Positions 5,481 through 42,195 of a stretch of DNA of 58,876 nucleotides are shown here, in pieces. Below the pieces are notes generated by a model, which made no database searches, was not told the DNA's origin, and saw only the letters and a list, made by a program, of their open reading frames with translations. This stretch comes from Chloroflexota bacterium. GTDB lineage: Bacteria; Chloroflexota; Dehalococcoidia; Lucifugimonadales; Australimonadaceae. The position numbers and the translations under genes were made by a program. Position 1 is the stretch's first letter. Each line of letters begins with the position of its first letter. Where the stretch lies: contig JADFQE010000003.1 of NCBI GenBank assembly GCA_022561985.1, positions 1-58,876 on the forward strand. The letters run 5' to 3'.

Positions 5481-5822
5481 CTATGAGACCCCGAACTTTA
5501 TGTAAAGCTCGGGCATCGGCCCGGGCGGAGGGGCGTTGACATCCAACCCGTGGACCTCTTTCACCTTGCCGGCGAACCACACGTCGAAGGGATCGGTGCC
5601 AGAGCCCAGCTTCGCCATGAATGAATCTGCCCCGGGCCCTTCATGCTGCGCGACCACGATCGGCCCCATCGGCGTCTCGGCGAGCCACGCGGCGTGCCGT
5701 GTCAGGCCGTACCGAGCGTTGAAGCTGCTGAATTCCGACTGGCGAGGCCCCTGCAGCTCTGCCGCCCATGCCTTCCACGCTTCAAGCTTACCTTCGACGA
5801 TCGGCGCTACGATTATTCCCAT
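5481..5822 (-). CDS. hypothetical small protein
   Basis: GAGGAGGG 6 nt upstream of the ATG at 5822. 113 aa, no family recognised. Confidence 0.6.
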   Translation of the reverse strand: MGIIVAPIVEGKLEAWKAWAAELQGPRQSEFSSFNARYGLTRHAAWLAETPMGPIVVAQHEGPGADSFMAKLGSGTDPFDVWFAGKVKEVHGLDVNAPPPGPMPELYIKFGVS

Positions 5823-5916
5823 GTGATCCCTCCTCATATCGATATCGACATCGCGCGAACTGCCGTCAGCATACTCTCGACGCACGCGTTCCTAAACTGC
5901 GCGGTCGGCGGGGGCC

Positions 5917-6747
5917 CTACCCCAGCGTGAGCGGCGTGTCCTCGCGGTTGGCCCACTCGCCCATCGAGCCGTCGTACATGCAGACGCCCCGCTGCCCGAT
6001 GAGCGCGAGGGCGAAGGCTCCGTGCGCCGCACGGATCCCTCCCTGTCAGTAGACGTGGACGGCCGTCTCGGGCGTGATGCCGAGCCCGGCGGCCAGCGCG
6101 CGCAGCTCGCCGGCGTCCTTGAACGTGTCGTCGTCGTTGACTAACTCGACCCATTCGAGGTGGGCCGCGCCCGGCACGTGGCCCTTGCGAGCGTTGCCGC
6201 GGTCGTTCTCGCCCGCGAACTCCTCGCGCGTGCGGACGTCCCAGATCACGGTGCCGGGCCGGCCGATGGCCACGGTGAGCTTCTCGACCGTCGAGGCGGC
6301 CGCTGGGTGCACGATGGGCGTGAACGTGGCGCCGGCCGAGGGCGCGCCGGGGCCGGTCTCGGCCGGACGGCCCTCGGCGGTCCACTTCTTCCAGCCGCCG
6401 TTGAGCACCTTGACGTTGGCGTGGCCGTAGTAGCCGAGCACCCACCACGCCCGTGCGGCGTCGCGGTTGCGGAAGCGGTCGTAGACGACCACGAGCGTCT
6501 CGTCGCCGATGCCCAGGGCTTCGAACAGCGCCTTGGCTTCGGCACGCGGCGCGACCAGCCGCGGGTTGGCCTCGCCGGTGCCCTTGATCTGCGCGCTCGG
6601 GCAGCGCACGGCCCCGGGGATGTGGCCCGCCTCGAAATCCTCGGCCTTCGTCCCCATCTCGACGATCACCATGCCGGGATCGCCCATGTGCTCGGCGAGC
6701 CATGCCGTGTCGGCAAGAAGCTCCGGGGCTGCGTACGTATCGGCCAT
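5917..6747 (-). CDS. two-domain rhodanese (thiosulfate/3-mercaptopyruvate sulfurtransferase-like) with an in-frame TGA at the catalytic Cys codon (6046-6048): Sec candidate or pseudogene
   Basis: GGAGG 6 nt upstream of the ATG at 6747. The sequence reads ...TPETAVHVY-TGA-QGGIRAAHGAFALALIGQRGVCMYDGSMGEWANREDTPLTLG-TAG, and the active-site loop C-x-x-G-x-R begins at the TGA. Confidence 0.75.
6016..6038 (-). other. SECIS-like hairpin downstream of the rhodanese UGA
   Basis: mRNA GGAUCCGUGC-GGC-GCACGGAGCC. The 6-bp perfect core starts 11 nt after the UGA and the G-rich loop starts 17 nt after it. Confidence 0.35.
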
Positions 6748-6883
6748 GGTGCGCCTCCGTCTCTGCATAGGCTCTGCATAGGGGCCCGCCTGAGCGGACG
6801 CGGCCAGTCTCAGCCGGGGGTCTGGCGCTGTCAACCGCGCTCCGCGCGCGTGGAAGGCATGGGGGGCGCTCGTGTCCGACAGC

Positions 6884-8357: not shown

Positions 8358-8957
8358 GTGTTCACACGCACCGCCATCGGGCACCGCCGCTCGATCCGAC
8401 TCCCAGACTTCGACTACACCGAGCCGGGTGCCTATTTCGTGACGCTGTGCACCCGCGATCGACGATGCGTCTTCGGCGAAGTGACGCAGGACAGCGTGAG
8501 ACTCACGCCTGTCGGTGAGATCGTTCATGAAGAGTGGCGCAGGTCGTCTGAGGTACGCGCGGAGGTTGAGCTCGACGGTTTCGCGGTGATGCCGAACCAC
8601 ATCCACGGGATCGTCATCATCAATGGATCGCGCCTGCGGAGCGGCCCGAGGGCGCACGGCCGTGCGCCCCTACATCGTCAGGGCCGTTCGCTGGGGGCCC
8701 TCGTGGCAGGCTTCAAAGCCGCCGTTACCAGCCGAATCAATCGGCTGGCGGACACGCCAGGCGCTCCCCTGTGGCAGCGCGGCTACTACGAGCACATCGT
8801 CCGCAGCAACGAGGAGCTTGCACGCATCCGGCAGTACATCGCGGAAAACCCTGGGCGCTGGGCAGAAGACTCCGAGAACCCCACCGTCGCCCAACATGTA
8901 GGGGCGCACGGCGTGCGCCCTGGCTCCCGCCCCGCAGAGCCGCCACCCGCCACGTGA
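8358..8957 (+). CDS. REP-associated tyrosine transposase (RAYT, IS200/IS605 Y1 family)
   Basis: The N-terminal YFVTLCTRDR, the HUH motif MPNHIHGIVI and the catalytic-Tyr segment RGYYEHIVR are present. The gene is flanked by REP copies. Confidence 0.85.
   Translation: MFTRTAIGHRRSIRLPDFDYTEPGAYFVTLCTRDRRCVFGEVTQDSVRLTPVGEIVHEEWRRSSEVRAEVELDGFAVMPNHIHGIVIINGSRLRSGPRAHGRAPLHRQGRSLGALVAGFKAAVTSRINRLADTPGAPLWQRGYYEHIVRSNEELARIRQYIAENPGRWAEDSENPTVAQHVGAHGVRPGSRPAEPPPAT
8650..8673 (+). repeat. REP-like palindrome inside the RAYT coding sequence
   Basis: GGGCGCAC-GGCC-GTGCGCCC-CTAC, 24 nt, in frame, encoding RAHGRAPLH. Confidence 0.5.
8898..8920 (+). repeat. REP element
   Basis: GTAGGGGCGCACGGCGTGCGCCC, identical to 8276-8298. 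It overlaps the 3' end of the RAYT ORF. Confidence 0.8.
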
Positions 8958-8989
8958 CATCCGGCACCGCTCCCGCCTACCCTACCCGT

Positions 8990-10306
8990 ATGCGCGTCCT
9001 CCACTTCTCCGATGTCCACATCGGCGTCGAGAACTACGGCCGGCCCGCCACCGAGGCGGACGTCGCCGCGCTGCCGCCGCACTTCGCGCCGGGCGCGGAG
9101 CGCTCGGGCTTCGTCGGCATGCCGACGCGGCTGCTCGATTTCCTGACGGCCCTCGACGAGATGGTCGACTATGCGCTACGCGAAGGCGTCGACCTCGTGC
9201 TGTTCTCCGGCGACGCGTACAAGAGCCGCGACCCGTCGCAGACGCACCAGCGCGAGTTCGTCGGGCGCATCGCGCGCCTCGCCGAGGCCGGCATCGTGGT
9301 CTTCCTCACGCCCGGCAACCACGACCTCCCCCACGTCGCCAACCGTGCCTCGGCGCTCGATATCTTCCCGACGCTCCGCGTCGAGAACGTCGTCGCCGGC
9401 ACGACGCTCGCCACGTACCGCGTGGCCACGCGCGCAGGCGACGCGCAGGTCGTCGCGCTCCCCTGGATCCGCATCGGCGGTTTCATGGCGAAGGAGGAGA
9501 CGCGCGGCCTGAGCCTCGAAGAGATCAAGGTGGCGATCGAGGCGCGCATCACCGAGCACCTCGCCGACGAGGTTGCGCAGCTCGACCCGGCGCTCCCGGC
9601 GTTCCTGTGCGCGCACGTGAACATCGCGGGCGCGACGACGGCGTCCGAGCGCAGCATGATGCTCGGCAACGACCACGTCCTCGGCCTCGGCACCGTCGCG
9701 ATCCCGGCCTTCGACTACGTCGCGCTGGGCAACATCCACAAGCACCAGGTTCTCACCCAGAACCCAACCGTCGCCTACGCCGGGAGCCTGGAGCGCATCG
9801 ACTTCAGCGAGGAGCGCGAGGACAAGGGCTTCTGCGTGATCGACGTCGATCCCTCGAAGCCCCGCGGCGAGCGCATGAGCAGCTTCTCCTTCGTCCCCGT
9901 CGCCGCGCGGGCGATGCTGACCATCGACGTCGCGGTGCGCTCCGGCGAGGACCCCACCGACGCCGTGCTCGCCGCGATCGGCAAGCACGCCGGGTCAGGC
10001 TCGGGACAGGCGATCGAGGGGGCGATCGTGCGGGTGCGCGTGTCGATGGACGCGGAGCAGGAGCCGGCGTTCCGCGAGACGGCCGTGCGCCAGGCGCTCG
10101 CGGCCGCGCACTACGTCACCGGGATCGAGCGCAGCGTGCGGCGCGAAGCGCGCACGCGCCTCGGGACCGACGAGGCCGAGCGCCTCGGCCCGATCGAGGC
10201 CCTGCGGCGCTACCTCGGCTCGAAGAACACGCCGGCCGAGCGCGAGCGGGTGCTCATCGAGCGCGCGGAGGCGCTCATCCGCGAGGAGGTCGAGGGCGCG
10301 GAGTAG
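8990..10306 (+). CDS. SbcD/Mre11-family metallophosphoesterase nuclease
   Basis: MRVLHFSDVHIG, LVLFSGDAYKSRDP and LTPGNHDLP motifs. Confidence 0.8.
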   Translation: MRVLHFSDVHIGVENYGRPATEADVAALPPHFAPGAERSGFVGMPTRLLDFLTALDEMVDYALREGVDLVLFSGDAYKSRDPSQTHQREFVGRIARLAEAGIVVFLTPGNHDLPHVANRASALDIFPTLRVENVVAGTTLATYRVATRAGDAQVVALPWIRIGGFMAKEETRGLSLEEIKVAIEARITEHLADEVAQLDPALPAFLCAHVNIAGATTASERSMMLGNDHVLGLGTVAIPAFDYVALGNIHKHQVLTQNPTVAYAGSLERIDFSEEREDKGFCVIDVDPSKPRGERMSSFSFVPVAARAMLTIDVAVRSGEDPTDAVLAAIGKHAGSGSGQAIEGAIVRVRVSMDAEQEPAFRETAVRQALAAAHYVTGIERSVRREARTRLGTDEAERLGPIEALRRYLGSKNTPAERERVLIERAEALIREEVEGAE

Positions 10307-18571: not shown

Positions 18572-19342
18572 CTACTCTTCTTCTTTCCAGAAGCGCTCTT
18601 CGATGAAGTTCCAGCCCTTCGGCTTCAGCCGGGCTTGGACGTCCTCGATCATGCCGGGGTTGCCGCAGAGGTAGACGACCGTGTCGTCCTTGGGCAAGCT
18701 CCACTTGGCCAGGTACTCCTCGACCAGCGTGTTGACGCGCCCGGTGGGACCGGCCCAGCTCCGGTTGCGCTCGGCGTTCGGACGGCTGACCGTCGTCACG
18801 TAGGTGACCGTGTCGGGGTGCTCGGCGGCGAGGCGCTCGAGCTCCGTGTCGTACACGAACTCGTCCTGGTGGCTGGCGCCCTCCATCACGAAGAACCGGT
18901 GGCCGCGGACGCCGTCCCGCTCGCTCTGGCGCAGGATGCTCACGAAGGGCGCGACCCCCGTGACCGTCCCCACCATCACGTGGTTGTGGTACTCGGACTG
19001 GAAGGTGAAGATGCCCTTCGCCTTGGGCCTCATCGACACCGACTCCCCCACGTGCATCTCCCACAGGAGGGGGGTCAGCTTCCCCCCGTACTCCGGCAGC
19101 ACGTACTCGACGAAGAGCTCGATGAGCTTCTCGTAGGGGGCCGAGGCGATCGAATAGGGCCGCTCGATGCCGCCCGTGCCGATGGTGATGTACTGGCCCG
19201 CCTTGAACGGGAACGGCACCTCCGGCCGGAGCCACATCAAGAACAGGTCCTCGCTGACCTCCTGCTTCTTGGCGACCCACGCCTTCGGCAGCTTGGCGAG
19301 GCGCTCCAACAGACGCGCCTGGCGCTCCGGATCGGTGGTCAT
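18572..19342 (-). CDS. ferredoxin-NADP reductase-family flavoprotein (FAD/NAD(P)-binding)
   Basis: RPYSIAS FAD motif, GTVTGVAPF NAD(P) motif and YLCGNPGM. The ATG overlaps the upstream stop (ATGA), with GGAGGA upstream. Confidence 0.8.
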   Translation of the reverse strand: MTTDPERQARLLERLAKLPKAWVAKKQEVSEDLFLMWLRPEVPFPFKAGQYITIGTGGIERPYSIASAPYEKLIELFVEYVLPEYGGKLTPLLWEMHVGESVSMRPKAKGIFTFQSEYHNHVMVGTVTGVAPFVSILRQSERDGVRGHRFFVMEGASHQDEFVYDTELERLAAEHPDTVTYVTTVSRPNAERNRSWAGPTGRVNTLVEEYLAKWSLPKDDTVVYLCGNPGMIEDVQARLKPKGWNFIEERFWKEEE

Positions 19343-22218
19343 TCGCCTTCCTCCTGATCGGGCTGGTCGGGCTCCTCGGGCTCCTCGGCTTCGATGCGCA
19401 CCGGCTGCGCGTTCAGCCGCGGTATGTGGTTCGTCGGGTCCGGGTGCTCCGAGGAGTCGACGGCGATCGCGAGCTCCCCGAAGAGCGTCGTGAGCGAGAC
19501 GACGCCGGGGAGCGCATCGTCGGAGACGCGCACGACCCCGCGCCTCGACGTGCCGTCCGCTGCCGCCGCGACCGCGCGCTGGCCGTCGGCGAGGCCGAGG
19601 TGCTCGGCGTCGGCGGCGCTCAGCACGAGCTCCTCGTCGCGCTCGATGCGGTTGCGGCCGCCGCTCGCCGCCACCTTCGCCGGCCGGCCCGGCTGCGCGA
19701 GCACGCGCCCGTGGGCGAGCAGCAGCGGGAAGCGCTCGTCGTCGTGCGCCGGGCGGGCGCGCCACGTGAGCACACCGAGGTGCGCCTTGGCATCGCGGAA
19801 CCCGTTCGCGTACAGGTCGGGCGTGCCGGGATCGGACCCCGACGCGCACGGCCACTGGATGCCGGTCCGCACCTCGCCGGAGTACATCACCTGGGTCGGC
19901 TGCGGGTTGTCGTTCGAGGGCTTCGGCACGCTGATGACCTGGACGCGGAGGCGCTCGGCGGAGATGCCGGCGTAGAGGGGAACCGCCTGCGCGATCTCAT
20001 CGAGCACCTGGTCCGGACCCTCGTACTCGAAGCCCGCCACGCCCATGCGCTCGGCGAGCGCGCAGAGCGTGTCGAGGTCGGAGCGCGCACGCACGCTCTT
20101 GTTCGTGAGCACGTGGCTCAGGAGCTGCACGCGCCGCTCGATGTTCGTGAAGGTGCCTGTCTTCTCCGCCCACTGGGACGCGGGCAGCACCACGTCCGCG
20201 TGGCGGGCGATGGGCGAGAGGAACCCATCGGTCACGACGAGGAAGCGCAGGCCATCGAGCGCCGCGGGAACGTCACCCAGGGTGCCGTCCTCGTAGTGGA
20301 CGTGGTCGCCCAGGAGCAGCATCGCGTCCAGGCCCCCGTTCCGGGCCGCGCTCAGCATCGCCCGGGCCCCCGCGCCCTTCGCCGCCGGGACCTCCGCGCC
20401 CCACAGCGCGCCGAGGCGGGCCCGCGCGTCGCCGTCGTCGATCGCGTCGTGCCCAGGCAGCGCGCCCGGCCACACGCCCATGTCCCAGGCGCCCTGGTCG
20501 TTGGCCCCGTGGAAGAGCGGGAAGATGCCCGCGCCGGGGACGCCGACGTTGCCCGTGAGCAGCGCCAGGTTGGCAACCGCGCGGGAGGCGGAGCGCCGCG
20601 TCCCGCCGGGCGAGCTGTCGAGGCCGTAGATGATCGCGGACGGGCCGCCGGTGGCATAGAGCCGGGCGGCCTCCTCGATGCGCTCGGACGCCACGCCGGT
20701 CTCGCGGGCGACCGCTGCCATCGTGAAGGGCGCGAGCGACTCCATGAGCTCGGCCCAGCCGTCGCAGCGCTCGTCGGCGAAACCGTGGTTCACGAGCCCC
20801 CCGTCCACGATCGCGCGCAGCATCCCGCCGAGCAGCGTCCCCTCCGTCCCCGGATGCGGCCGCAGCCAGAGGTGCGCGAAGCGCGTGAGCTCGACCTCCC
20901 GGTGGTCGATCACGATGAGCTTCTGCGTGCCCTCGCGGACGGCGCGCTTGATCGGGAGCGCGAGTATGTTCTGCTCCTCCGTGACGTTCGCGGCGACGGC
21001 AAGCACCACGGACGAGCGCTGCAGATCCCAGACGCTCATGCTCCCGGCGGAGTAGCCGAGCACGTCGCGCAGACCCTCCACCATGCCGGGCCGGTCGTTG
21101 GAGGCCACGTCCACGTTGTTCGAGCCCATCACGACCCGCGCGAACTTCTGGGCCGTATAGAGCTCCTCGTTCGTGTTGCGGGGGCCGGCGATGAGGCCGA
21201 AGCGCCCGCCCCGGTAGGGCGCGAGGCCTTCCGCCGCGGCCGCAAGCGCCTCCTCCCACGTCGCTTGGACAAGCTCCCCGTCGCGGCGGACCAGCGGGTG
21301 CTTGAGCCGGGACTTGTGGTTCACGTAGTCGAACCCGAACTTGCCCTTGAAGCAGGCCTGGCCCTGGTTCACCGGCGAGTTGAGCTCGGGGATGGCGCGG
21401 ACGACCCGCTCCCAGCCGTTGACCTCGTAGGTCATCGTGCAGCCCACGGGGCACTCGGCGCAGATCGACTGCTCTGTCCGCGCGGCCCGCTCCCACTTGT
21501 AGTCGCTCTCCGTGAGCGCGCCGACCGGGCACACGTCGATGCAGGCGCCGCAGAACTCGCACCCCGCCTCCAGGAGCGAGTCTCCCATGACCGTGCCCAC
21601 GAGCACCTGGCCCGCGCGCTCGGTCAGCGTGAGCGCGACGTCGCCGCGCAGCTCGTCACAGGCCCGCGTGCACCGCGCGCACACGATGCACAGGTTGTAG
21701 TCGCGGTCGTAGAAGGGGTCCTTCGTCTCGACCTGGAGCTCCCGGTACTGATAGGTCAGCGGCGAGGTCATCCCCTGGGGGTGGAACCGCGTCGTGTCCT
21801 TGAGCTCGCACCGCTCGTTCTTCGGGCACGTCACGCACCGGTCGGTGACGTCGACGTGGCGCAGGCAGATGTCCTGCGGGCCGCACAGGTCGACGCGGTG
21901 GCACGTGAGGCAGCCGTGGGGGTGCTCGGACAGCAGCAGGTCGAGGGTGGCGTCGCGCACGGCCACCGGCTTCTCGGCGTTCGTGTGCACGACCATGCCG
22001 TCGGCAACGGGCAGCGTGCACGATGCGAGGGTCGCCGTGCCGCGCGGGCCCTCGACGTCCACGACGCACATGCGGCAGGCGCCGTAGGGCTTCATGCCGG
22101 GGTGGTAGCAGAGATAGGGGATGTAGATGCCGGCGGCGTTGGCGGCTTCGAGCACCATCTGGTCCGCCGTCGCCCGCACCTCGCGGCCATCGATCGTGAT
22201 ACTCAGCTCATCAGGCAT
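19339..22218 (-). CDS. formate dehydrogenase alpha / NuoG-like molybdopterin oxidoreductase with an N-terminal 2Fe-2S and 4Fe-4S ferredoxin module
   Basis: ITIDGREV...YLCYHP...GACRMC, several Cys clusters, CAECPVGC and GQACFKGKFGFDYV. 959 aa with an acidic C-terminus. Confidence 0.8.
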   Translation of the reverse strand: MPDELSITIDGREVRATADQMVLEAANAAGIYIPYLCYHPGMKPYGACRMCVVDVEGPRGTATLASCTLPVADGMVVHTNAEKPVAVRDATLDLLLSEHPHGCLTCHRVDLCGPQDICLRHVDVTDRCVTCPKNERCELKDTTRFHPQGMTSPLTYQYRELQVETKDPFYDRDYNLCIVCARCTRACDELRGDVALTLTERAGQVLVGTVMGDSLLEAGCEFCGACIDVCPVGALTESDYKWERAARTEQSICAECPVGCTMTYEVNGWERVVRAIPELNSPVNQGQACFKGKFGFDYVNHKSRLKHPLVRRDGELVQATWEEALAAAAEGLAPYRGGRFGLIAGPRNTNEELYTAQKFARVVMGSNNVDVASNDRPGMVEGLRDVLGYSAGSMSVWDLQRSSVVLAVAANVTEEQNILALPIKRAVREGTQKLIVIDHREVELTRFAHLWLRPHPGTEGTLLGGMLRAIVDGGLVNHGFADERCDGWAELMESLAPFTMAAVARETGVASERIEEAARLYATGGPSAIIYGLDSSPGGTRRSASRAVANLALLTGNVGVPGAGIFPLFHGANDQGAWDMGVWPGALPGHDAIDDGDARARLGALWGAEVPAAKGAGARAMLSAARNGGLDAMLLLGDHVHYEDGTLGDVPAALDGLRFLVVTDGFLSPIARHADVVLPASQWAEKTGTFTNIERRVQLLSHVLTNKSVRARSDLDTLCALAERMGVAGFEYEGPDQVLDEIAQAVPLYAGISAERLRVQVISVPKPSNDNPQPTQVMYSGEVRTGIQWPCASGSDPGTPDLYANGFRDAKAHLGVLTWRARPAHDDERFPLLLAHGRVLAQPGRPAKVAASGGRNRIERDEELVLSAADAEHLGLADGQRAVAAAADGTSRRGVVRVSDDALPGVVSLTTLFGELAIAVDSSEHPDPTNHIPRLNAQPVRIEAEEPEEPDQPDQEEGE

Positions 22219-24007
22219 GCGGTGTGGCCTCCACTCCGGTGCCCACCGGCTCGCGGCTCGCGACGAAGTCCGCGTTCACGATGGCCGTGGGTGTTTCGCC
22301 ATCGAGCTGCGCGCCGCGCAGCGGGGCCCGTGGGCTCACGAGCGTGCCGAGGTCGCGCGCGGTTTCCCGGCTGCACTGGGCGGCGAACTCCTCGCCGAAG
22401 AACCGCACGGCCGAGGCGACCGGGTTGTAGCCGAGCTGACCGTGGCCGCAGAGCGAGCCCACCTTCATGTTCGCGCCGATACGCTCCATCAGCGCCAGGT
22501 CCTCCGGACGGCCCTCCCCGGCGCAGAGCCGGTCCAAGACTTCGAGCAGGTGGCTCGTCCCCAGCCGGCACGGGAAGCACTTGCCGCAGGACTCAAGCTG
22601 GTCGAAGGCGAGCAGGGTGCGGGTGAGGTCGACCACCGAGCGGTCCTCGTTGCAGACGATCAGTCCGCCCGATCCGAACATCGCTCCGGCCTCCGCCATC
22701 ACGTCGAGGTCGAGCACGATGTCGAGCTGGTCGACCGGCAGCACGCCGCCGAGGGGACCGCCCGTCTGGACGAACTTCAGCCGCTTCCCGGCCGGGTCTC
22801 CGCCGCCGCACTCCTCGACCACCTGGCGCATGGTCAGGCCGAAGGGCACCTCCACGAGCCCCGGATAGGCGATGTCGCCGGAGAGACACGCGATGGCCGT
22901 GCCGGGACTCTTCTCGGTACCGATGCTCCTGAACCACTCGGCGCCCCGGCGCACGATCTCCGGGACATAGGCCAACGTCTTGATGTTGTTGATGTTGGAC
23001 GGCTTGCCCCAGACGCCGAAGGCCGCGGGGAAGGGCGGGCGGAAGCGCGGCATCGACCGCTTCCCCTCGATCGCCTCCATCAGCGCCGTCTCCTCGCCGG
23101 CGACGTAGGAATCGCCGACCAGAGAGATGTCCATGTCGAAGGAGAAGTCGCTGCCCAGGATGTGTGGGCCCAGGAGGCCGTTGTCGTAGCACGCCGCGAT
23201 GGCGGCGCGCGTGCGCTCGATGGGGGAATCGTGGCCGTGGCGGATGAAGACGATGCCGTTGGACGCGCCGGTGGCGAACCCCGCGATGATGCATCCCTCG
23301 ACGAGGGTGAAGGGGTCGGCCTCGAGGATCGTCTTGTCGTTGAAGGCGCCGGGGTCGCCCTCCTCGGCGTTGCACAGGATGTACTTCTCGGGAGCCGGGT
23401 TGCCCGCGAGGAACCCCCACTTCACGCCGGTGGGGAAGGCGGCGCCACCGCGGCCCCGGAGCCCGGAGTCCTTGACCTCCTGAAGCACGCGCTCCGGGTC
23501 CAGCTCGGAGACGGCGCGGTCCAACCCCGCGAAGCCACCGCGCGCGACGTACTGGTCGATGTCGGCCGGGTCGATCTCGCCCGCGTTGCGCAGGGCGATC
23601 CGCTGCTGGAGGCGCATCATCGGGAGGTCCTCGCGCCGCGGCAGTCCGGGGTGGTCGGAGTCGACGGTGGCAAGCGCCAGCTCGACCACGGGGAAGCCGT
23701 TCTTGATGTGCCGCTCCACGATCTCCGGGATGTGCTCGGGGCCAACGTTGGCATAGAGCACGCGCGGCGTGGCCGGCACGTAGACGTCGACGAGCGGCTC
23801 GGCGAAGCACAGCCCGGTGGAGCCGACCTCCGAGACGGTGGCGTCGATCCCGGCCTGAGCGAGGTCGTGCCGGAGCGCGCCGAGCGTGTCGCGCGCGCCG
23901 GCAGCCATGCCGAGCAGCCCGGTGCTCACGCGGATCCAGGGCTTGCGGTGGAGGTCGGTCCACCGCCTGTTCCCGCGGATCTTGAGCGCATCGAACGCCT
24001 CACTCAT
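22211..24007 (-). CDS. NuoF/HoxF-like NAD(H)-binding FMN iron-sulfur subunit
   Basis: GLRGRGGAAFPTGVKW and ESCGKCFPCRLG motifs, with an N-terminal thioredoxin-like extension. It overlaps both neighbours by 8 nt. Confidence 0.85.
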   Translation of the reverse strand: MSEAFDALKIRGNRRWTDLHRKPWIRVSTGLLGMAAGARDTLGALRHDLAQAGIDATVSEVGSTGLCFAEPLVDVYVPATPRVLYANVGPEHIPEIVERHIKNGFPVVELALATVDSDHPGLPRREDLPMMRLQQRIALRNAGEIDPADIDQYVARGGFAGLDRAVSELDPERVLQEVKDSGLRGRGGAAFPTGVKWGFLAGNPAPEKYILCNAEEGDPGAFNDKTILEADPFTLVEGCIIAGFATGASNGIVFIRHGHDSPIERTRAAIAACYDNGLLGPHILGSDFSFDMDISLVGDSYVAGEETALMEAIEGKRSMPRFRPPFPAAFGVWGKPSNINNIKTLAYVPEIVRRGAEWFRSIGTEKSPGTAIACLSGDIAYPGLVEVPFGLTMRQVVEECGGGDPAGKRLKFVQTGGPLGGVLPVDQLDIVLDLDVMAEAGAMFGSGGLIVCNEDRSVVDLTRTLLAFDQLESCGKCFPCRLGTSHLLEVLDRLCAGEGRPEDLALMERIGANMKVGSLCGHGQLGYNPVASAVRFFGEEFAAQCSRETARDLGTLVSPRAPLRGAQLDGETPTAIVNADFVASREPVGTGVEATPHA

Positions 24008-24740
24008 CGGAGTCCGTCCCGTCGGCGTCAGGCTCCGCGCCGGCTTCGCCATCCGCGTCAGCGTCCGGGCTCTCGGCGTCGTCAGGCTCAGCGCCGGCCT
24101 CGGCTCCCGCGTCAGCATCTGCATCCGCGTCCGCCTCGGCGGCGGCTTCGGCTTCGGCTGCCGCCTCGGCTGCCACCAGAGCGGCAGCCGCCACGCGCGC
24201 GTCCCGCTCGGCCTTCACGCGCTCGGTCTCCGCTTCGAGGACCGCGCTCCTGCCCTCCTCGACGTCGCTGGCGAGCAGCAGGTCGATGTGGCGGACCGCC
24301 GTCTCACGCGTCGCCCGCCCGACGATCTCGTGGTCGAAGCTCGTGGCCGGGCCGTGGGGGCAGACGCCCAGGCAGGTGTTCAGCCGCAGCGTGAAGGTCC
24401 CATCGGGCGTGTCGCCCTCCCCATCGAGCCCGAGGCGCTCCATGACGCCACGGAGCAGCGGCTGCGCGCCGAGGATGTGGCACGCCGGTCCCCAGCAGAC
24501 CTCGACGGTGTGGCGGGCGGGGGGCGTGAAGCGGAAGTTGGGGTAGAAGGACGCGACGCCCCAGACCTCGTTGGTGCTGGCGCTCGTGCGCTGGGCTGTC
24601 TCGTCGATGGCCTCGGGCGGCAGGTAGCCGAGCTTGTCCTGCGCGGCGAGCAGCGACGAGAGGACCGTAACCACTCGCGCCGACTGGTCGGCGATGGCCT
24701 GACGGGCCTCCTCGCGCAAGCCCGTGGGAGTGGCCGTCAT
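24000..24740 (-). CDS. NuoE-like 2Fe-2S subunit with an acidic low-complexity tail
   Basis: The core contains VCWGPACH...CLGVCPHGP. The last 60 or so aa are Ala/Glu/Asp repeats. Confidence 0.8.
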   Translation of the reverse strand: MTATPTGLREEARQAIADQSARVVTVLSSLLAAQDKLGYLPPEAIDETAQRTSASTNEVWGVASFYPNFRFTPPARHTVEVCWGPACHILGAQPLLRGVMERLGLDGEGDTPDGTFTLRLNTCLGVCPHGPATSFDHEIVGRATRETAVRHIDLLLASDVEEGRSAVLEAETERVKAERDARVAAAALVAAEAAAEAEAAAEADADADADAGAEAGAEPDDAESPDADADGEAGAEPDADGTDSDE

Positions 24741-41547: not shown

Positions 41548-42195
41548 ATGCCGCAGCTCAAGGCAGACGTCTACTTCGACTTCCGCTGACCGTTCGTCTT
41601 CAATGCAGCCGTGTGGCTGGATATGGTCAAGGCGGCCCGCGGGGGCGAAGCGCCCATCGAGATCACGTGGAAGCCCTTCTCGCTCCAGCAGGTCAACCAG
41701 AAGGTCGGACCCGACTACCTGGCGTGGAACGAGCCGGACGAGGAGCTCCACCACAGCGTGTGGGGGCTGCGCGCGGGCGAGGCGGCGCGGCGCCAGGGCG
41801 AGGACGCGCTCCGGCGCTTCATGCCGTTCATCCTCGAAGCACGCCACGTGGAGCGCAAGGAGCTCAACGACAAGGAGCTGCTGAAGGGTCTCGCGGCCAA
41901 GGCTGAGCTTGATGTGGCACGGTTCGGGAAGGACCTGGACGACCGCTCGCTGCTGGATCTCATCGCCGCCAGCCACACCCATGCGGTCGAGGAGCTCGGC
42001 GTCTTCGGCACGCCGACCTTCGTCTTCGAGAACGGCGCGTCCGCGTTCCTCAAGATGCTCAAGCCCCGCACGCCGGAGGAGGCCGTCCGCTCCTTCGACG
42101 CGCTGATCCCCGTGCTGGAGGGCGAGGTCGCGGTCGGCGAGCTCAAGCGCCCGCAGCCGCCCTGGCCCAAGGGCATCTTTGATAAGACGCCCTAG
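41548..42195 (+). CDS. DsbA-like thioredoxin-fold protein with an in-frame TGA (41587-41589) at the N-terminal redox Cys position: Sec candidate or pseudogene
   Basis: GAGGAGG 7 nt upstream of the ATG at 41548. The sequence reads MPQLKADVYFDFR-TGA-PFVFNAAVWLDMV..., matching the 'FDf.CP' active-site strand of DsbA-family proteins. The frame is continuous with ORF 41611-42195. Confidence 0.7.
41606..41619 (+). other. weak SECIS-like hairpin downstream of the DsbA-like UGA
   Basis: CAGCC-GUGU-GGCUG. The loop starts 21 nt after the UGA. The stem extends by U-A and A-U pairs after a G.G mismatch. Confidence 0.25.

Follow-up and report, generated by a model that had tools for sequence, protein, structure and literature searches.

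A tandem-domain rhodanese gene with an in-frame UGA at the catalytic cysteine position as a predicted selenoprotein gene of Dehalococcoidia

Selenocysteine (Sec) at the active site of rhodanese-like sulfurtransferases has been predicted in surveys of bacterial selenoproteins. Among the entries of the Sargasso Sea selenoproteome is a Sec protein named "rhodanese-related sulfurtransferase, COG2897", for which a Sec insertion sequence (SECIS) was predicted (Zhang, Fomenko & Gladyshev 2005; PMC1088965), and a 2026 review includes rhodanese-like form 4, COG2897, with the motif UxxG in its Table 1 (PMC13188914). Form 2, which has the same motif as form 4, is of the single-domain COG0607 type (PMC9312934). 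In this work we analysed a stretch of 58,876 nucleotides of the Chloroflexota contig JADFQE010000003.1, hereafter the window, in which the minus strand carries a gene for a two-domain rhodanese with an in-frame TGA. A first reading of this DNA, made from the sequence only and without database searches, had interpreted the gene as a candidate selenoprotein gene and had mentioned that selenoproteome surveys report Sec-containing rhodanese-related families, which is right. The interpretation is supported by the orthologues, the region downstream of the TGA, the hairpin that follows it, independent assemblies and the literature, and we give a probability of about 0.93 that this is a genuine bacterial selenoprotein gene, with Sec at the catalytic Cys of a tandem rhodanese.

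The reading frame opens with an ATG at position 6747 and runs for 233 codons to ...AVHVY, where it meets the TGA (6048-6046). It then remains open for 42 sense codons (QGGIRAAHGAFALALIGQRGVCMYDGSMGEWANREDTPLTLG, of which the peptide GVCMYDGSMGEWANR is a part) up to a TAG (5919-5917), and translation reproduced every coordinate that the sequence-only reading had given for this frame. With Cys written at the TGA, the protein matches Pfam Rhodanese PF00581 in two stretches (E = 5e-33), and its residues 5-275 align with solved tandem rhodaneses (E = 6e-44 to 5e-32), the catalytic Cys of which falls opposite the TGA. The N-terminus MADTYAAPELLA is common to the window protein and its relatives. The UGA had been placed exactly at the catalytic Cys, and this position holds: relatives read YCQGGIRAAH there and the catalytic Cys of the Thermus thermophilus structure 1UAR aligns with the TGA. 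The gene encodes a tandem-domain rhodanese with the SseA/COG2897 architecture, in which the catalytic Cys is very probably replaced by Sec. Both the tandem rhodanese domains and UxxG at the catalytic position agree with form 4.

The best match among NCBIfam models was 3-mercaptopyruvate sulfurtransferase (3-MST), over residues 12-273, and no match at equivalog level was obtained for the rhodanese. Identity with the SseA equivalog (NF008557) was rejected, since the 122.5 bits scored lie below the curated cutoff of 250, though fold and architecture agree. For this reason the substrate preference of 3-MST cannot be transferred. The active-site loop UQGGIRA fits neither the classical thiosulfate-type loop nor the mercaptopyruvate-type loop. 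Because of both the loop and the score, no substrate was assigned to the protein. Membership in NF041203 (LYCAU, form 3) was also rejected, with 29.1 bits against a cutoff of 115 and with two domains and UxxG instead of a single domain with CxU.

Relatives were collected as 84 gene copies, comprising the window's own and those found in 80 species-representative genomes, which are mostly metagenome-assembled genomes (MAGs) of Dehalococcoidia/SAR202, with a few labelled Binatia, Gemmatimonadetes or Thermodesulfobacteriota. In the protein search, sequences of 230-240 amino acids made up around 80 of the 120 best clusters (51-97% identical), all of them ending in ...H[VTIA]Y, and relatives of 276-280 residues carry on past that end with YCQGGIRAAH. 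At the DNA level, orthologues were compared, a check that had been proposed beforehand: 77 of the 84 copies have TGA as their catalytic codon and the remaining 7 have TGC, with neither TAA nor TAG in any (0/84). The true stops of the 77 TGA-form genes are TAG in 50, TAA in 17 and TGA in 10. Three Dehalococcoidia genomes carry tandem rhodanese paralogues with TGA and the same hairpin in both copies (L024 and L030, each at 2743 and 3684; L036, at 2757 and 3696).

These counts bear directly on the possibility that an ordinary Cys-rhodanese has been truncated, either by a nonsense mutation of TGC or TGT to TGA or by a mistake in sequencing or assembly. A single-base change is enough to turn TGC into TGA and gene callers do annotate a product of 233 amino acids, but the 77 gene copies that share TGA at this codon range from 45% to 98% in identity and come from many projects and assemblers. 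Moreover, the TGA, the downstream region and the hairpin are all kept in L081 and L152, contigs of two further metagenome assemblies with nucleotide identities of 98.4% and 98.8%, respectively, and since they retain the TGA independently a sequencing error is excluded. The region after the TGA is never interrupted and is under purifying selection, and the codons that form the hairpin are fixed in TGA forms only, as described below. The explanation by mutation or error is thus already refuted.

In all 77 TGA forms the tail that follows the UGA is open, for 40-47 codons, and its median pairwise dN/dS is 0.27-0.29, as compared with 0.53 for the 40 codons upstream of the TGA. It holds the catalytic-domain elements QGGIRAAH and YDGSxxEWxN and aligns with solved rhodaneses up to their C-termini. 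As judged from this pattern of substitution, the tail is translated and under purifying selection; the decay of the 42 downstream codons in relatives, which had been named in advance as evidence that would speak against a selenoprotein, did not occur. It could be argued that termination at the UGA is nevertheless the main outcome, that the 233-residue protein, an inactive N-terminal domain with a partial C-terminal domain, is functional, and that the hairpin serves mRNA stability or attenuation. Bacterial Sec insertion is generally inefficient and, given this, a truncated product would be expected under scarce selenium. However, the conserved catalytic-domain elements of the tail, its dN/dS below that of the preceding codons and its alignment up to the ends of the solved structures all stand against termination as the main outcome, and no activity is known for a truncated domain without its active-site loop; we regard this explanation as improbable.

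A bacterial selenoprotein gene combines the Sec-UGA with a SECIS element in the mRNA. The sequence-only reading had described a perfect 6-bp stem with a GGC loop (CCGUGC-GGC-GCACGG, 6034-6020) that begins 11 nt after the UGA, with 17 nt from the UGA to the loop, and had extended it to about 10 bp. This hairpin was confirmed, a U-A pair (6035/6019) was added to it, and the extended fold has 12 bp across bulges, with -22 kcal/mol; the 15-nt core has -8.0 kcal/mol and the 7-bp stem in a 19-nt stretch has -10.7 kcal/mol. The extended lower stem looks variable among relatives. The published bacterial SECIS (bSECIS) model asks for a loop of 3-9 nt, an upper stem of 4-16 bp and 16-37 nt from UGA to loop (PMC13188914, section 5), as well as a G in the first two loop positions (G[G/U]N) and a minimum free energy (MFE) of -7.5 kcal/mol or lower, and it was coded strictly with a stem of at least 4 bp. 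The window hairpin agrees with all of these constraints (3-nt loop GGC, stem of 6-7 bp, 17 nt, energy), so the spacing, which the sequence-only reading had also judged suitable, lies within the published range. Applied to the relatives, the strict model fits 73 of the 77 TGA forms; for in-frame control positions taken from these genes the figure is 109 of 1008 (10.8%), and for Cys forms it is 1 of 7. Among the 73 fitting forms the loop of the main hairpin is GGC in 52, GUC in 9 and GGG in 5. Most relatives have, like the window, 17 nt between the UGA and the loop, and variant hairpins have 19, 24 or 25 nt.

The codons that build the stem provide a sharper contrast. All 51 TGA forms that encode R-A-A-H share the identical 12 nucleotides CGUGCGGCGCAC (CGU GCG GCG CAC), which are absent from all 6 Cys forms with this peptide, where CGC/CGG and GCC/GCA/GCU are used instead (nominal Fisher p = 2.8e-8 for Cys against Sec forms). 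In the nearest Cys form (L082) the Arg codon is CGG and the U-A pair is broken. On the alignment of the 77 TGA forms (74 distinct sequences) 87% of cells are paired. Compensatory exchange between C-G and G-C occurs in 11 sequences, in which the third base of an Ile-to-Val codon changes together with the second base of a Gly-to-Ala codon, and exchange between G-C and U-A occurs in 4 sequences and corresponds to simultaneous Ala->Ser and His->Asn replacements. These changes on both sides of two pairs amount to 15 cells, and none of 500 shuffles reached as many. Seven sequences (L021, L064, L067, L069, L072, L075 and L077) have the Asn without the compensating Ser and have lost the usual hairpin; they carry a shifted hairpin of 7 or 8 bp with a loop that starts with G, 24-25 nt after the UGA. 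A third arrangement is found in L032, with the same 5' arm, a different 3' arm and the loop GUCA. Sequences that lack the first hairpin have a shifted one that still fits the bSECIS model, and the SECIS has been relocated within the family, in one subclade. Windowed folding energy separates Sec from Cys forms weakly (-10.8 vs -8.5 kcal/mol) because everything is GC-rich, and codon-level conservation and the model-based test distinguished the two better. Taken as comparative evidence, these patterns indicate a constraint on the hairpin at the RNA level that is confined to genes with TGA at the catalytic position.

Several results weigh against the selenoprotein interpretation and must be taken into account. 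The extended hairpin has z = -2.0 relative to dinucleotide shuffles, 7 of 200 of which fold equally well; a single hairpin is by itself only moderately unusual for a sequence of 70% GC, and it is the comparative data that decide. RNAalifold returned an empty consensus structure on the 77-sequence alignment, and pairs were counted on the named structure instead. The whole window, searched at the gathering threshold, and the part 5900-6100, searched at E <= 10, gave no match to an Rfam SECIS family, the sole match being a spurious lncRNA fragment. The sequences compared are related and not independent, so that the Fisher and shuffle figures overstate significance, and the control of Cys forms is small, with 7-8 forms. 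In the 59-kb window neither ARAGORN nor Rfam found a tRNA-Sec, tRNA-Lys alone being detected, and a Pfam scan of the approximately 39 called genes showed no SelA, SelB or SelD domain. In addition, the selenium content of the family is itself a prediction, the category assigned in the review being "predicted with high confidence" (PMC13188914).

Evidence for Sec decoding comes from related genomes and from a second gene of the window. The locus is syntenic with L001-L017, with a tRNA-Lys(UUU) downstream in common. In two SAR202 genomes (L038 and L043, the latter a single-cell genome) a tRNA-Sec lies approximately 2 kb downstream of the TGA-form orthologue on the same contig, called by ARAGORN and by Rfam RF01852 at 71-72 bits (L038, 5718-5810; L043, 5723-5815; both on the minus strand); selA, selB and selD were not seen in the fetched flanks of these orthologues. 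The tRNA-Sec of L043 adjoins a thioredoxin gene. Within the window, an in-frame TGA with coding signal on both sides occurs at two sites, 6046 and 41587, the second of which had already been pointed out as another UGA at a Cys position and proved to be real. It lies in a gene for a DsbA-like protein with a weak Pfam DSBA match, and the motif search located the site in 34 metagenome relatives, 33 of which have TGA and 1 TGC as this codon. The hairpin CAGCC-GUGU-GGCUG recurs in most of these relatives. The motif of this gene corresponds to "DsbA-like form 2, DxxUP" (PMC13188914). A second conserved TGA gene supports, at the level of sequence comparison, the view that Sec is decoded in this organism, and 46-49 selenoprotein genes are on record for MAGs of Dehalococcoidia listed in the BSepDB paper (PMC13326102).

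The same data are relevant to another possibility, in which a variant code or SECIS-independent suppression would place a standard amino acid (Trp, Gly or Cys) at the UGA. An in-frame UGA followed by a translated tail would look alike in that case, and the Sec machinery is not seen in the window; however, 11 of 36 called genes of the window end in TGA, among them mutS, ligA and trpS with their normal lengths (the other stops being 22 TAG and 3 TAA), and because of this TGA is not reassigned genome-wide. Furthermore, the 59 kb contain only two in-frame TGA candidates, each of which falls on a redox or catalytic Cys, the TGA is accompanied by a hairpin that agrees with the SECIS model, and a tRNA-Sec stands beside the orthologue in two relatives. 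Decoding as a standard amino acid is accordingly only a slight possibility, comparable to that of a functional truncated protein. TAG is the most frequent stop although the window has 70% GC, and this usage may reflect avoidance of TGA in a lineage rich in selenoproteins. Three further in-frame TGA candidates of the window scan were rejected as antisense frames of real genes.

According to the established mechanism of bacterial Sec insertion, the UGA at 6048-6046 would not be read as a stop. The hairpin 10-11 nt downstream would bind SelB carrying Sec-tRNA(Sec) as the ribosome arrives, Sec would be inserted, and the ribosome would run on for 42 codons to the TAG, yielding a 276-residue enzyme with a complete catalytic domain. 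By analogy with rhodanese chemistry, the enzyme would work by double displacement, in which the selenolate would take the sulfane sulfur from a donor (thiosulfate, persulfide) and pass it to an acceptor, with an Se-S (selenenyl-persulfide) intermediate instead of Cys-S-S. A Cys is found at residue 256 (5980-5982, minus strand; VCMYDGS), 22 residues after the Sec. It characterises the subclade to which the window belongs, whereas the position is occupied by Arg, Lys or a different residue in most of the other relatives, including the Cys forms. From its position, Cys 256 could be a resolving Cys.

In a rough neighbour-joining tree the Cys forms do not group together but occupy at least three positions (L019, L082 and the Tepidiforma group) between Sec forms, which suggests repeated exchange between Sec and Cys, as in other families, although so crude a tree is an indication only. 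Five TGA forms (L054, L057, L058, L071 and L073) make up one tight cluster in the tree and come from MAGs labelled Binatia, Gemmatimonadetes, Deltaproteobacteria and Thermodesulfobacteriota, a distribution that suggests horizontal transfer or binning errors. We consider it rather doubtful that Sec is ancestral and prevailing across SAR202/Dehalococcoidia, with later reversions to Cys, and that the enzyme possibly does a job for which a Cys-rhodanese is ill-suited. If this were true, such a job might be the carrying of selenium or sulfane sulfur as an Se-Se/Se-S adduct for selenophosphate synthesis, or the handling of thiosulfate or polysulfide at very low concentrations. In that case RNA pairing would also visibly steer protein evolution, because codons of the active-site loop also make up the SECIS, as in the paired Ala->Ser/His->Asn replacements and the relocation of the hairpin in one subclade.

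Table 1. Coordinates of the rhodanese gene, of the DsbA-like gene and of their predicted elements in the window.
Feature	Position	Strand	Remarks
Predicted Sec-containing two-domain rhodanese, coding sequence	5917..6747	minus	From translation; 276 codons plus stop, Sec = codon 234
Predicted Sec-UGA codon	6046..6048	minus	In place of the catalytic Cys that forms the persulfide; U-Q-G-G, fitting UxxG
True stop TAG	5917..5919	minus	Read from sequence and translation
Shine-Dalgarno-like GGAGG	6754..6758	minus	6 nt upstream of the ATG; read from sequence, putative function
Predicted SECIS core hairpin	6019..6035	minus	7-bp stem UCCGUGC/GCACGGA, loop GGC; codons +4 to +9 (I-R-A-A-H-G) of the active-site loop
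Extended lower stem	6013..6041	minus	5 more pairs (6041-6037 with 6017-6013), 1-nt bulges at 6036 and 6018; MFE and centroid structures
Predicted second selenoprotein gene, DsbA-like	41548..42195	+	TGA 41587-41589, motif D-F-R-U-P; from translation
Hairpin of the DsbA-like gene, CAGCC-GUGU-GGCUG	41606-41619	+	21 nt after the UGA

Other features of the window were noted around these two genes. An 11-bp tandem duplication (CCTATGCAGAG x2, 6760-6781, minus strand) immediately precedes the rhodanese gene's ribosome-binding site and is identical in the 98%-identical contig L081. No NCBIfam model matched the DsbA-like protein or the small downstream open reading frame (ORF) at 5484-5825. In the region 19342-24124 (minus strand) a NuoG/formate-dehydrogenase-like molybdopterin oxidoreductase of 959 amino acids adjoins a NuoF-like flavoprotein; the formate-dehydrogenase-like gene (19342-22218) was considered as a third selenoprotein gene and rejected, as its frame is uninterrupted and the motif search found no Cys/Sec-His site. 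An ORF at 8358-8957 (plus strand; ...MPNHIHGIVII...) looks like an IS200/RayT-type Y1 transposase and overlaps the start of a metallophosphoesterase call (8771-10306).

The gene described here is one more member of a selenoprotein family predicted twenty years ago, and in this respect it changes little. What is added is that the carriers sampled are mainly Dehalococcoidia/SAR202, that TGA outnumbers Cys by 77:7 among the closest copies, and that the SECIS is made from codons of the active-site loop. Public annotations give a "sulfurtransferase" of 231-238 residues that lacks the catalytic residue and the active-site loop, and the DsbA-like gene at 41587 is likewise mis-annotated as truncated. 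Since annotations stop at the Sec-UGA, metabolic reconstructions of Dehalococcoidia/SAR202 carry systematically truncated models. From the 77:7 excess of predicted Sec forms it seems that sulfur handling in this abundant marine lineage, the cultivation of which is reported for SAR202 (PMC10444878), does depend on selenium. We know of no Sec-rhodanese that has been characterised, and the family offers a clean natural Sec/Cys pair with which the contribution of selenium to persulfide-transfer chemistry could be tested. In the literature library searched, no paper linking SAR202 to selenoproteins was found, and absence from that library is not proof of novelty.

The solved rhodaneses 1UAR, 3HZU (Mycobacterium tuberculosis SseA), 1E0C (Azotobacter RhdA) and 1URH (Escherichia coli SseA) have the same fold and length as the window protein, but all have Cys at the catalytic site, where the window protein has Sec. 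The active-site loop of 1UAR is CRIAERS as opposed to UQGGIRA, and the loops of 3HZU, 1E0C and 1URH also differ from UQGGIRA. Other Sec-rhodaneses, namely form 1 (UxxS, Geobacter), form 2 (COG0607/PspE single domain, UxxG), form 3 (NF041203 rhodanese_LYCAU, CxU) and form 5 (TsoB), share with the window protein the rhodanese fold and a Sec in or beside the active-site loop; however, they consist of one domain or of a fusion and have other motifs. The predicted SECIS resembles the E. coli fdhF-type element and the bSECIS consensus (Zhang & Gladyshev 2005) in being a hairpin within the ORF directly after the UGA, with a small apical loop that starts with G-G/U, 17 nt to the loop and a core of approximately 17 nt from 10-11 nt after the UGA. 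It differs from the fdhF SECIS in having no sequence similarity to it, no bulged U in the upper stem and a loop of 3 nt, and binding by SelB is predicted. The spacing in the window also agrees with the minimal fdhF element. The closest described system is the Sec-rhodanese COG2897 of the Sargasso Sea, which likewise has two domains, U-x-x-G at the catalytic Cys and a downstream SECIS within the ORF, is of marine uncultured origin and is known by prediction only; no difference in kind was found, the comparison with the published representatives MCY3690685.1 and AACY01016424 being by description only, as neither accession turned up in the ten protein clusters looked up. Both the rhodanese and the DsbA-like gene thus belong to catalogued families, and the finding is real and not new.

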